In this document: one piece after another, positions 23,752 through 26,473 of the stretch
Numbering within the stretch: position 1 is the first letter of the stretch
Layout: the number at the start of each line of letters is the position of its first letter
Assembly: GCA_963677595.1 (NCBI GenBank)
Contig: OY782041.1
Coordinates: forward strand, 1,408,001-1,472,000
Reading direction: 5' to 3'
DNA length: 64,000 nucleotides
DNA from: Spirochaetia bacterium
Lineage (GTDB): Bacteria > Spirochaetota > Spirochaetia > CAKZLE01
Translations under genes and position numbers: made by a program
Notes under the pieces: model-generated
Databases searched by the model: none
What the model was told of the DNA's origin: nothing
The model's input: only the letters and a program-made list of their open reading frames with translations

Positions 23752-24792
23752 TCAGGAACGCCTGAACCGATCGATCATCGCCAGCAGTTCATCACGTGCG
23801 AGTGAGTCATCGAAGAGTTCACGGATCTCCGTTACCGACTCCTCGAGGAGCTCCATCGCCCGGGCTTCTGCCTGCTCGACGACCCCGCTTTCCATGAGGA
23901 GCCCGATGAGCCGTTCGACCTCGTCATGGGCCCGATCGATCCCTCGGGTTTTCGCAATAGAGAAGACCTCGAGCACCTCCGGCAGCCGGTCGGGATGCTG
24001 CTGCAGGAAGAGGATGACCGGGAGGCTCTTCTTGTTCTCCACGATGTCATCGCCCCGGTGCTTGCCGGGATTCCCCTCCCGTATATTGATCACGTCATCC
24101 TTGATCTGGAACCCGACCCCGATCTTCTCGGCCAGGACCCCTGCCCTTCGGATGACCGCCCCGTCATCGGTCGCCACGACGGCCCCGATCTCAGCGCTCA
24201 TGCCGGCAAGGCAGCCGGTCTTGAACCGGCACATCTGCTCATACTCCTCCGGATCGGGTATCAAGCCGGCATCCCGGTGCCAGGTGATGTCGAGCCCCTG
24301 GCCGAGATGGACGCGCCGCAGGTATTTCGCATAGACCTGGTAGACCTTCAGCTGCTTGTCTGCAGGCAGGCCGGAATCGTCTATGGCTGCCGTCGGCAGG
24401 TAGTAGAGCAGGTTCCCCGCATTGATCGATACATCCACCCCATGCGTGATATAAGCGGCAGGGGCGCCCCTGCGCACCTCCGATGAGTCCTCGATATCAT
24501 CGATGATGAGCGACCCATTGTGGGGCAGCTCCACCACGGGCGTCAGCCGGTATGCCTGCTGTGCGGCCTCCTCACCCCCGAGCATCTCGGCGATGAGTAC
24601 CATGAGCAGCGGTCTCCACCGCTTCCCGCCGGCACCAAGGAGATCCCGGGCAGGGAGGCAGAACCGGTCATAGGTCCCCGTCGTGGGGTTCTCCACCTTC
24701 GTCCCGGTGACCCAGTCGATCCAGGATGGGGTAACTGCCGCGGGGAGGACTCTCTCGAGTTCCTGTTCTATTCGTTCTAATCGGTCTTGCAT
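23752..24792 (-). CDS. Polyprenyl diphosphate synthase
   Basis: GGKRWRP, first Asp-rich motif IIDDIED...RRG, GQGLD, KTG, FQIKDD, DDIVENKKS. Confidence 0.92.
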   Translation of the reverse strand: MQDRLERIEQELERVLPAAVTPSWIDWVTGTKVENPTTGTYDRFCLPARDLLGAGGKRWRPLLMVLIAEMLGGEEAAQQAYRLTPVVELPHNGSLIIDDIEDSSEVRRGAPAAYITHGVDVSINAGNLLYYLPTAAIDDSGLPADKQLKVYQVYAKYLRRVHLGQGLDITWHRDAGLIPDPEEYEQMCRFKTGCLAGMSAEIGAVVATDDGAVIRRAGVLAEKIGVGFQIKDDVINIREGNPGKHRGDDIVENKKSLPVILFLQQHPDRLPEVLEVFSIAKTRGIDRAHDEVERLIGLLMESGVVEQAEARAMELLEESVTEIRELFDDSLARDELLAMIDRFRRS

Positions 24793-24930
24793 ACCGCAAG
24801 GATAGGTTCGAATACCTCAGCCTGTCAAGGAGACCGCGTAGAAATTTCACACTATCTCCACCCGGGGACAATGTTGCACATACCAGCCGATGATTACCCC
24901 CTCATAAGCCGGTTTTCCGGGTATAAAAGT

Positions 24931-24946
24931 TGGCACGGGCATTGCT
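24931..24946 (+). promoter_or_regulatory. sigma54 (-24/-12) promoter
   Basis: TGGCAC-GGGCA-TTGCT matches the TGGCAC-N5-TTGC consensus. Confidence 0.8.
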
Positions 24947-24955
24947 ATATACTTG

Positions 24956-25057
24956 GTGCAAAGCAGTTGATTTTTTCATACCTCCTCTATGTGTAGGCGG
25001 TTGATCCGGATCCCTCTCCCTCCCTCCCCTATTCCCGGATCAATCGCCACTTTTTTT
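24956..25057 (+). ncRNA. Candidate ~100-nt sigma54-dependent small RNA
   Basis: Bounded by the sigma54 promoter and a 14-bp stem (24996-25009 / 25035-25048) plus T7; no plausible ORF; anti-SD CATACCTCCT and a C/T-rich loop. Confidence 0.65.
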
Positions 25058-25087
25058 GTCCTGGCCACATGTGGTATACTCTAGTCC

Positions 25088-25690
25088 ATGGCAAAGAATA
25101 GAGAACAAGCTGATTTCTACACGAAGAAAGCGAAAAAAGAAGGGTATCCCGCCCGTTCCGTCTATAAACTCGAGGAGATCCAGCAGAAGTTCCGGGTGAT
25201 CAAGCCCGGGGATGCAGTCCTCGACATCGGGGCAGCACCGGGAAGCTGGACTCTCTACACCCATCGCGAGCTCATCAAGGGAACAGGATCGATCGTGGCG
25301 GTCGATCTCAAGCCGCTGGGACTCAACCCGGTCCCGCCGACGGTGACTGCCCTTACCGGGGATGCCTTCGGGGAGGATAACCTGCAGGAGATCACCGGAA
25401 GAGGACCCTATAACTGCATCATCAGCGATGCCGCACCAGCAACGACCGGGAACCGGTCGGTCGACACCCTGCGGTCCCAGGGGCTGGCAGAATCGGTGAT
25501 CGAGGTAGCAAGGCAGCAGCTCAAGCCCCACGGCAACCTGGTGATCAAGATCTTCCAGGGCGGCGGAGAACAGGATGTGATCAAGCTGATGCGGGAGTTC
25601 TTCACCAAGGTGAAGCCCATCAAGCCGAAAGCCTGCAGAAACGAGTCCTTCGAGGTCTTCCTCGTCGGGCTCGATCGTAAGGAGGAGTGA
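25088..25690 (+). CDS. rlmE: 23S rRNA Um2552 methyltransferase RlmE/FtsJ
   Basis: YPARSVYKL, LDIGAAPGSW, ISDAAP, VIKIFQG, KPKACRNESFE. Confidence 0.95.
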   Translation: MAKNREQADFYTKKAKKEGYPARSVYKLEEIQQKFRVIKPGDAVLDIGAAPGSWTLYTHRELIKGTGSIVAVDLKPLGLNPVPPTVTALTGDAFGEDNLQEITGRGPYNCIISDAAPATTGNRSVDTLRSQGLAESVIEVARQQLKPHGNLVIKIFQGGGEQDVIKLMREFFTKVKPIKPKACRNESFEVFLVGLDRKEE

Positions 25691-26297: not shown

Positions 26298-26363
26298 GGA
26301 GCAGCAACTGTTGTACCCTGATAATTTTCTGCAACATTTTCACAGAAACCCGGGGTCGGCGTG

Positions 26364-26445
26364 TTGCATAAATATGTGGAAATAGGTACTATCCTACCAA
26401 TTTAAGTCGATGATAAACCGTAATTTCTGTATAAATATACAGAAA
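26364..26445 (+). promoter_or_regulatory. carAB promoter with ARG-box-like palindrome
   Basis: TTGCAT-17-TACTAT (26364-26392); TTTCTGTATA-AA-TATACAGAAA (26424-26445); a partial box TGCATAAATAT overlaps the -35. Confidence 0.6.
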
Positions 26446-26473
26446 ATATACAAAAACAAGGAAGGGTATCATA

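Follow-up and report, generated by a model that had tools for sequence, protein, structure and literature searches.

A sigma54-type small RNA family of Spirochaetia with a seed complementary to the Shine-Dalgarno sequence and the start codon

The csRNAs, which act under the two-component system CiaRH, combine an anti-Shine-Dalgarno (anti-SD) sequence with a sequence complementary to the AUG (available text of PMC3091779). FopS pairs at translation-initiation regions, thereby repressing translation, and is induced by bile salts (accessible part of PMC11697453), and for both FopS and GibS a U5-CAU seed, pairing at start codons and binding by an RRM protein have been described (PMC11697453 and PMC7366714, as far as their text is available). 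The Qrr RNAs are multi-copy and block ribosome-binding sites (PMC13501541, text available in part), whilst AbcR1/AbcR2 and NfeR1 repress the mRNAs of periplasmic solute-binding proteins (PMC8844928, likewise in part). Spirochaetes are not mentioned in the accessible portion of a 2026 review of small RNAs (sRNAs) in gut commensals (PMC13750123), and a literature search, outside which most subscription papers lay, returned no sRNA or Rfam RNA-motif report for Sphaerochaeta.

The element described here lies in a 64,000-nt stretch of DNA from a Spirochaetia bacterium, referred to throughout as the window. It represents a real, uncatalogued, multi-copy family of sigma54 sRNAs that is of a known kind: it would work like the csRNAs and FopS and belongs to neither.

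The element and its family

The features of the locus, in window coordinates, are these:

23752..24792, minus strand: polyprenyl diphosphate synthase gene, the divergent upstream neighbour
24835..24851, plus strand: distal enhancer site, a predicted activator-binding site at -96 from the sigma54 box, with three mismatches and the right half intact
24864..24880, plus strand: proximal enhancer site at -67, with two mismatches, at the second peak of the family
24931..24946, plus strand: sigma54 -24/-12 promoter, with TTGGCA and TTGC invariant in eight homologues and rpoN in the genome
near 24957, plus strand: predicted transcription start (+1), from the position of the sigma54 box
24957..25057, plus strand: predicted small RNA of about 100 nt, with putative ends
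24959..24966, plus strand: conserved 5′ AGCA block, found in 127 of 133 copies, in part because the search pattern selected it
24971..24979, plus strand: seed half 1, U6-CAU, complementary to AUG-AAR-ARR, U pairing with A or G
24980..24988, plus strand: seed half 2, anti-SD ACCUCCUCU, read from the sequence
24996..25057, plus strand: intrinsic terminator with a 14-bp stem, a 25-nt C/U loop and T7
25010..25034, plus strand: the 25-nt terminator loop, a possible second anti-SD seed
25072..25080, plus strand: extended -10 (TG-n-TATACT) of leaderless rlmE, a separate transcription unit, 7 nt before the ATG at 25088
25088..25690, plus strand: rlmE-like 23S rRNA methyltransferase gene, the usual, not obligatory, downstream neighbour

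The sigma54 promoter, 14-bp stem, T7, 25-nt loop and extended -10 of rlmE that the first-pass annotation had reported are all present where it placed them. The -24 element (TGGCAC) occupies 24931-24936 and the -12 element (TTGC) 24942-24945, and the strict form of the box, TTGGCACG-N4-TTGC, occurs three times in the 4.3-Mb genome. The arms of the stem (24996-25009 and 25035-25048) form 14 bp with one G-U pair, and T7 (25051-25057) lies two bases 3′ of it. Folding of a 103-nt RNA (z = -4.55; none of 200 shuffles equally stable) gives one terminator hairpin and a largely open 5′ part; across copies the seed is only partly open (median unpaired probability 0.62). The proposed complementarity of this 5′ part to an SD and AUG-AAA-AAA is exact, the reverse complement of TTTTTTCATACCTCCTCT (24971-24988) being AGAGGAGG-T-ATG-AAA-AAA, with the qualification that in the window RNA only 2 nt (GGAG to AUG) link anti-SD to anti-AUG. 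Because the spacer in the mRNAs of solute-binding-protein genes is mostly 6-7 nt, pairing of both seed halves needs a bulge in the mRNA.

No Rfam model matched the window at its gathering score, the best sub-threshold match being VrrA (16 bits against a cut-off of 50); 16 homologous loci gave no such match except a tRNA, and a tRNA/tmRNA scan of the window found none. The rlmE-like product matches the RlmE/RrmJ models at scores below their equivalog cut-offs. Elsewhere in the window, an AT-rich stretch at 26300-26473, 5′ of carA-carB-like genes, contains several imperfect palindromes, possibly repressor sites.

By DNA search the element is present in all five family relatives, each of which keeps promoter, seed and hairpin, and in one of 35 other genomes, with conservation beginning at the promoter. 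A pattern of promoter plus U-tract matched 79 of 401 genomes of the class (the reversed pattern matched 8), including 5/5 genomes of family f1 and 27/38 of family f12; matches outside these two families are mostly chance or sigma54-led mRNAs. At least 128 stretches match in a collection of named genomes, the spirochaete-type ones mostly in Sphaerochaeta, Sphaerochaetaceae and Spirochaetales records. A sequence profile made from 27 copies added families f19 (5/5 genomes) and f20 (3/6 verified). The loci pooled from the matches listed numbered 142 distinct ones, and dropping two false matches (L015 and L028) left, among the matches listed, 140 distinct copies from at least four Spirochaetia families, often two or three in tandem. 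These four families are kin, not independent, and the genomes are related, near-identical strains included, so the counts describe spread and not independent events.

Every copy has the sigma54 box, U5-7-CA(U) and the anti-SD seed, with CAA or CAC in place of CAU in about half. A terminator, scored as a hairpin below -9 kcal/mol with a T-rich run after it, was called in 133 of the 140; since the call demanded the T-rich run, the U-count after the stem is circular and was not used. Loci with a terminated copy comprise 59 single, 34 double and 2 triple arrangements. The sequence of the stem varies freely, and the homologues with covariation by which the candidate was to be checked are both found: 140 copies, among the matches listed, and, in an eight-sequence alignment, 8 of 12 stem pairs changed on both sides, with none of 500 shuffles reaching the covariation score. 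With no Rfam match, rpoN in the genome and the failure of a leader reading (below), the sequences also uphold the original proposal of an unannotated, stand-alone RpoN-type sRNA gene, and that the element stands alone as an sRNA gene is very probable.

Some variants depart from this plan. The profile found seed and hairpin elements that have no sigma54 box in families f4 (L307, L309) and f35 (L310), and in f4 the terminator loop is plain anti-SD (ACCUCCUUU), which supports the loop as a second seed. Tandem copies at L055:1242 and L342 are without the anti-SD (L342 also without the U-tract) and keep the C-rich loop; their partner copies keep the 5′ seed, a possible division of labour. Some contigs with the labels Segatella, Bacteroidaceae, Clostridiales or Bacteroides also carry spirochaete-type elements (L059, L080, L094, L096), which probably reflect mislabelled or mis-binned records rather than transfer. 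At G000:C1:398588-398660 (L319:1478-1575), a seed-like stretch is followed by a hairpin with an anti-SD loop, with no sigma54 box, and its opposite strand carries an SD and a 14-codon signal-peptide-like ORF. The stretch is not conserved in 10 relatives; it may represent a second sibling, a sponge or the relic of a gene start.

The likely activator and the proposed mechanism

Of 135 copies, 100 have the palindrome TGTG[AC]-N7-[TG]CACA, with at most one mismatch, upstream of them, where shuffles gave 2.1. Its positions peak at -100..-91 and -70..-61, near -96 and -67, and the sites in the window, degenerate as they are (two and three mismatches), fall at exactly these positions; the family relatives shown have retained the distal position, -96. 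The f19 and f20 copies also carry the palindrome, with sites in 7 of 9 loci. The genome contains rpoN, as the first-pass annotation asked to see confirmed together with an enhancer-binding protein, and 11 full bacterial enhancer-binding protein (bEBP; sigma54-activator) domains. Three bEBPs, namely an Rrp2-like regulator, PspF and a second response regulator, are common to this genome and all five relatives tested.

Only two perfect palindromes occur in the genome, and one of them lies 97 nt before a sigma54-like box that heads a kinase-regulator operon, a layout of palindrome, sigma54 box and kinase-regulator genes that is also found in relative G004. The two genes are:

G000:C1:836345-837715: sigma54 response regulator, candidate activator
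G000:C1:837715-838974: histidine kinase, membrane-bound

Among 46 f12 genomes there are 17 matches to palindrome plus sigma54 box, of which 10 head the sRNA, five a TolC-like gene and two an rpoS-like gene. All four TolC-led loci examined, of the five, run TolC-MFP-ABC ATPase-MacB-type permease-kinase-regulator, with an M3 peptidase next in three of the four, and the one rpoS-led locus examined continues into kinase and regulator genes, with a receiver-less Rrp2-like gene just upstream. Of 151 class genomes, 19 have strong matches to the sensor domain of the kinase, and every one of these has the element; conversely, the kinase is present in 19 of the 20 genomes with a sigma54-type element, the exception being 55% complete.

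The kinase and sigma54 response regulator are thus, on these sequence associations, the likely activating pair. The assignment goes no further than likely because the motif is absent directly upstream of the kinase in 4/4 small f12 genomes and because family f9 has the kinase-exporter operon and no detected sRNA. The Rrp2-like protein is an alternative activator, since it is shared by all five relatives tested and the motif precedes an rpoS-like gene in two genomes. PspF was rejected, the pspA promoters carrying a different palindrome by eye.

Other sigma54 loci of this genome may be recorded here. The pspF gene and two sigma54-type pspA operons (G000:C1:1382013-1385726; L226-L229 and L233) have promoters sharing a GGTAAA-N4-TACC-like palindrome, as judged by eye. 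At G000:C1:3675742-3683548, an Rrp2-like kinase/bEBP pair lies near a sigma54-driven rpoS-like sigma gene starting ATG-AAA-AAG, an arrangement that we take to resemble the RpoN-RpoS cascade of Borrelia. A nifA-like bEBP gene (G000:C1:43724-46529) is placed between two sigma54 promoters, one of them before a nifH-like start. The names Rrp2, RpoS-like, PspF and MacAB-TolC-type are presumptive, from Pfam domains, blast neighbours and background knowledge.

From the promoter, the enhancer palindrome, the seed, the covarying terminator, the independence from rlmE, the tandem copies and the palindrome before the kinase-regulator operon, a full mechanism can be proposed, in which a sigma54 sRNA induced by the kinase and regulator would repress translation of exported proteins at SD plus AUG-AAR-ARR starts; as a whole we consider this somewhat better than an even chance. 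The regulator would bind the two enhancer sites and open the promoter. The signal may be envelope stress, because the same promoter heads the TolC-MFP-ABC-MacB-type exporter in relatives; this step draws on established knowledge of MacAB-TolC. The two half-seeds would then close over a bulged mRNA spacer of 4-5 nt and block ribosome loading, so that fewer solute-binding proteins and lipoproteins would enter the export pathway, the sRNA forming the repressing arm of a stress response. Hfq was not found in the genome (95% complete), which has one RRM_1 protein gene; the RRM protein is a candidate partner of the sRNA.

Predicted targets and rival readings

The target class was examined over 3529 genes from a crude caller, which missed 14 of 90 Pfam solute-binding matches, leaving 76 mapped (four families). 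An SD plus ATG-A-R5 start is found in 39 of these 76 genes, compared with 166 of 3453 others, and in 124 of 312 signal-peptide-like genes, compared with 148 of 3217, the signal-peptide filter being blind to Lys and Arg. By eye, 26 of the 30 f12 solute-binding genes examined, of 50 found, begin in this way. As U pairs with G too, the seed covers Lys and Arg codons. The resemblance is visible from the RNA side as well: three of the four next-best matches to the family profile in the genome are antisense to the starts of solute-binding-protein genes, and of 15 weak-match regions in other families, the seven seed-like matches shown are all antisense to gene starts, five of them solute-binding-like.

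In discriminating solute-binding genes among SD-led genes, the anti-AUG half of the seed gave an AUC of 0.75 and the anti-SD half 0.50; the whole seed core gave 0.68, a value that at least one of 40 shuffles reached. Specificity therefore appears to reside mainly in the U-tract-CAU half, favouring the starts of exported proteins. Energy ranking showed modest enrichment: it placed 15 exported proteins in the top 50 (4.4 expected; at most 13 in 40 shuffles), and the best shuffles beat the seed in the top 100 (26 versus 24) and top 200 (42 versus 38). For the 76 solute-binding genes the ranking was weak, with one among the top 50 and seven among the top 100, compared with 4 and 7 reached in 25 shuffles; with accessibility left out, six came within the top 100 and seven within the top 200. 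No single long complementary target was found, nothing in the genome exceeding 13 nt for either seed, and the rpoS-like gene, rank 185 of 3529, was rejected as main target. The predicted targets probably span a broad range in which exported proteins are favoured.

Two parts of the first-pass annotation fare less well here. It had likened the C-rich terminator loop to the seeds of RNAIII and RsaE, an analogy that is weakened, with the csRNAs and FopS closer, because the loop motif occurs in only 63 of 142 scanned copies and shows no target enrichment. Where analysed (59 copies) the motif is unpaired, with a median probability of 1.00; of 41 f12 genomes, 15 contain the complement of 14 nt of the loop, with only one or two occurrences in each and none standing out separately, and matches at coordinates seen before are the sRNA genes themselves. 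It had also suggested that the RNA would spare many leaderless mRNAs. Leaderless genes do exist: -10 boxes peak 6-7 nt ahead of the start, where 171 genes have one, compared with about 25-30 genes at each other position; by this count they are a minority, and ‘many’ was an overstatement.

The same sRNA could instead act on any SD-led, purine-rich start in response to a nutritional signal, as a broad translation brake or a nutrient-uptake regulator of the GcvB/AbcR type. In favour of this reading are the many cytoplasmic enzymes among the top-ranked duplexes, the roughly 90 solute-binding genes of the genome, the M3 oligoendopeptidase within the kinase operon, and the extracytoplasmic part of the kinase, for which there are only weak Cache-like leads (scores 0.88-0.91). 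AbcR1/2 also use two anti-SD motifs on transporter mRNAs (PMC8844928, in the text available). However, enrichment comes from the U-tract-CAU half and none from the anti-SD half alone, and the enhancer would co-regulate a MacAB-TolC-type exporter. We regard this reading as unlikely, with some weight left to it.

It is improbable that the RNA titrates a protein, with its U-tract and C-rich loop binding an RNA-binding protein such as the RRM protein and its likeness to mRNA starts being mimicry of the sites that this protein naturally binds. RbpB (RRM-1) does bind FopS (accessible text of PMC11697453), and the genome here has an RRM protein and gave no Hfq match. Although conserved and unpaired, the loop motif has a 14-nt complement that is rare; however, the motif is missing from over half of the copies, and the second half of the seed tracks the ribosome-binding signal of the host, being anti-SD in spirochaetes and a FopS-like block in the Bacteroidales copies described below. 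CsrB and CrcZ contain tandem repeats of one motif, and this RNA does not.

A role in cis, as a sigma54-driven leader or attenuator for rlmE or as a terminator merely insulating it, is very improbable. Within the 1.4-1.6 kb examined, rlmE does follow in 54 of 74 copies. However, in the other 20 of these 74, each with at least 1.4 kb of downstream sequence, rlmE is not nearby; where it is directly downstream, 38 of the 41 genes have their own -10 box 5-8 nt before the ATG and none has an SD; and tandem copies each have a full promoter and terminator. The earlier view that rlmE has a promoter of its own is borne out by these counts, on which the read-through or leader reading fails.

That the minus strand is the functional one, its SD and ATG-AAA-AAA opening a small peptide (25 codons here) or marking a relic gene start, is scarcely credible, for although the reverse complement resembles a signal-peptide start and a possible relic of like kind exists at G000:C1:398588, the antisense frames shift and range from 5 to more than 200 codons, the SD would lie 0-2 nt from the start, promoter and enhancers are oriented for the plus strand, and stem stability (60 versus 65) does not discriminate between strands.

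Comparison with described systems

The sigma54-sRNA features found here are a -24/-12 box at the correct spacing, rpoN, a bEBP and, degenerate in the window, predicted enhancer sites lying 60-150 nt upstream of the promoter. GlmY is under sigma54/GlrR control. The sigma54 promoter and a response-regulator-type bEBP are shared with Qrr1-5 (LuxO) and GlmY (GlrK/GlrR), which differ in that there is no sequence match and that no Hfq was found here; the regulator scores 346 bits against the LuxO cut-off of 800 and 356 against the GlrR cut-off of 763. AbcR1/AbcR2 and NfeR1 of rhizobia likewise have tandem siblings and anti-SD seeds, one of them in a loop, whereas the rhizobial RNAs are under LsrB/RpoH1 control, AbcR binds Hfq and a U-tract-CAU seed is absent (PMC8844928, as available). 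AbcR1/2 (alpha-r15) are three-hairpin, Hfq-bound RNAs with CUCCUCCC and UUCCCCUC seeds, in contrast to the single hairpin here, which has no Rfam match. The proposed repressing arm that would lower envelope-protein synthesis is reminiscent of MicA, RybB, MicL, CpxQ and VrrA of the sigmaE and Cpx responses (PMC5736990, in part); these have another sigma factor and other seeds, whereas the predicted spirochaete targets would be recognised by the codons of the signal-peptide n-region.

The csRNAs are closer. The Rfam consensus (RF02379) runs U6-CAU, linker, CUCC, terminator, in the same order as the spirochaete RNA; stretches antisense to the SD and to the start codon lie in a 5′ or unpaired region, as here (median unpaired probability 0.62); and csRNA hosts also lack Hfq. 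However, csRNAs are controlled by an OmpR-type regulator at NTTAAG-N5-TTTAAG with a -10 box, a repeat not found upstream of the element in the window, in contrast to the sigma54 box and bEBP palindrome of this other phylum, and they often have a 5′ hairpin and have a longer consensus linker, compared with one of mostly 2 nt in spirochaetes. The csRNA nonamer [A/C]UCCUAAA[A/C] occurs in 0/133 homologues, and at the gathering score of 57 bits the window has no match, the best score being 30 bits for a distant relative (L310).

FopS and GibS (RF04319 and RF04182; Bacteroidaceae) share a 5′ single-stranded UUUUUCAU seed, a terminator, the presence of paralogues, base-pairing around transporter-mRNA start codons and an RRM protein in the host. 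They differ in that AGUAUUAGAUUUAAGG, not an anti-SD, follows CAU in FopS; in that the R1 seed GUGUUUUUCAUAGUAUUAG is not present here, only its UUUUUCAUA part being common and then followed by anti-SD; and in their promoters, sigmaABfr or PM2, not sigma54. Their models gave no match for the window at E up to 10 (gathering scores of 56 and 115 bits), and none of the 41 genomes searched contained the 5′ pattern of GibS. The promoter of gibS is PM1 in supplement file 4 (row 18) of PMC7366714 and PM2 in its text, as far as available. The idea that PM2 is a sigma54 box was discarded, the mapped gibS upstream sequence having no -24/-12 box.

FopS-like RNAs do nevertheless occur behind sigma54 boxes, in four of the 251 genomes of Bacteroidales (the chosen centre being one of the four) and in further named records (L046, L057, L061, L074, L084, L099, L106, L114, L119, L122, L128, L156-L158, L237 and L240-L243). 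They are in tandem in Saccharicrinis/Labilibacter-type records and score about 30 bits on the FopS model, under its cut-off. The block after CAU is FopS-like and not anti-SD, consistent with pairing to the initiation signal of the host itself. The AGCA block common to these and the spirochaete RNAs is partly pattern-selected, and is present in only one of five copies from an unbiased search.

For spirochaetes of gut, digester and sediment, the family provides a widespread sRNA together with predictions of its activator, of the binding site and of the class of targets. Should the target bias hold, the sRNA would select mRNAs by the destination of the protein, through the codons of the signal-peptide start, rather than by gene-specific sites, and this would suggest why FopS and the csRNAs share a U6-CAU seed. 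A wider possibility, which we offer tentatively and think less likely than not to hold in full, is that three phyla use one design, a U-tract-CAU joined to the ribosome-binding signal of the host, in which the Lys/Arg codons at the beginning of the signal peptide would serve to recognise exported proteins as a class. The cases would be the csRNAs, FopS with its undescribed sigma54 branch and the spirochaete family, each under control linked to the envelope, the spirochaete RNA being a class-wide throttle on export wired to a MacAB-TolC-linked sigma54 two-component system.
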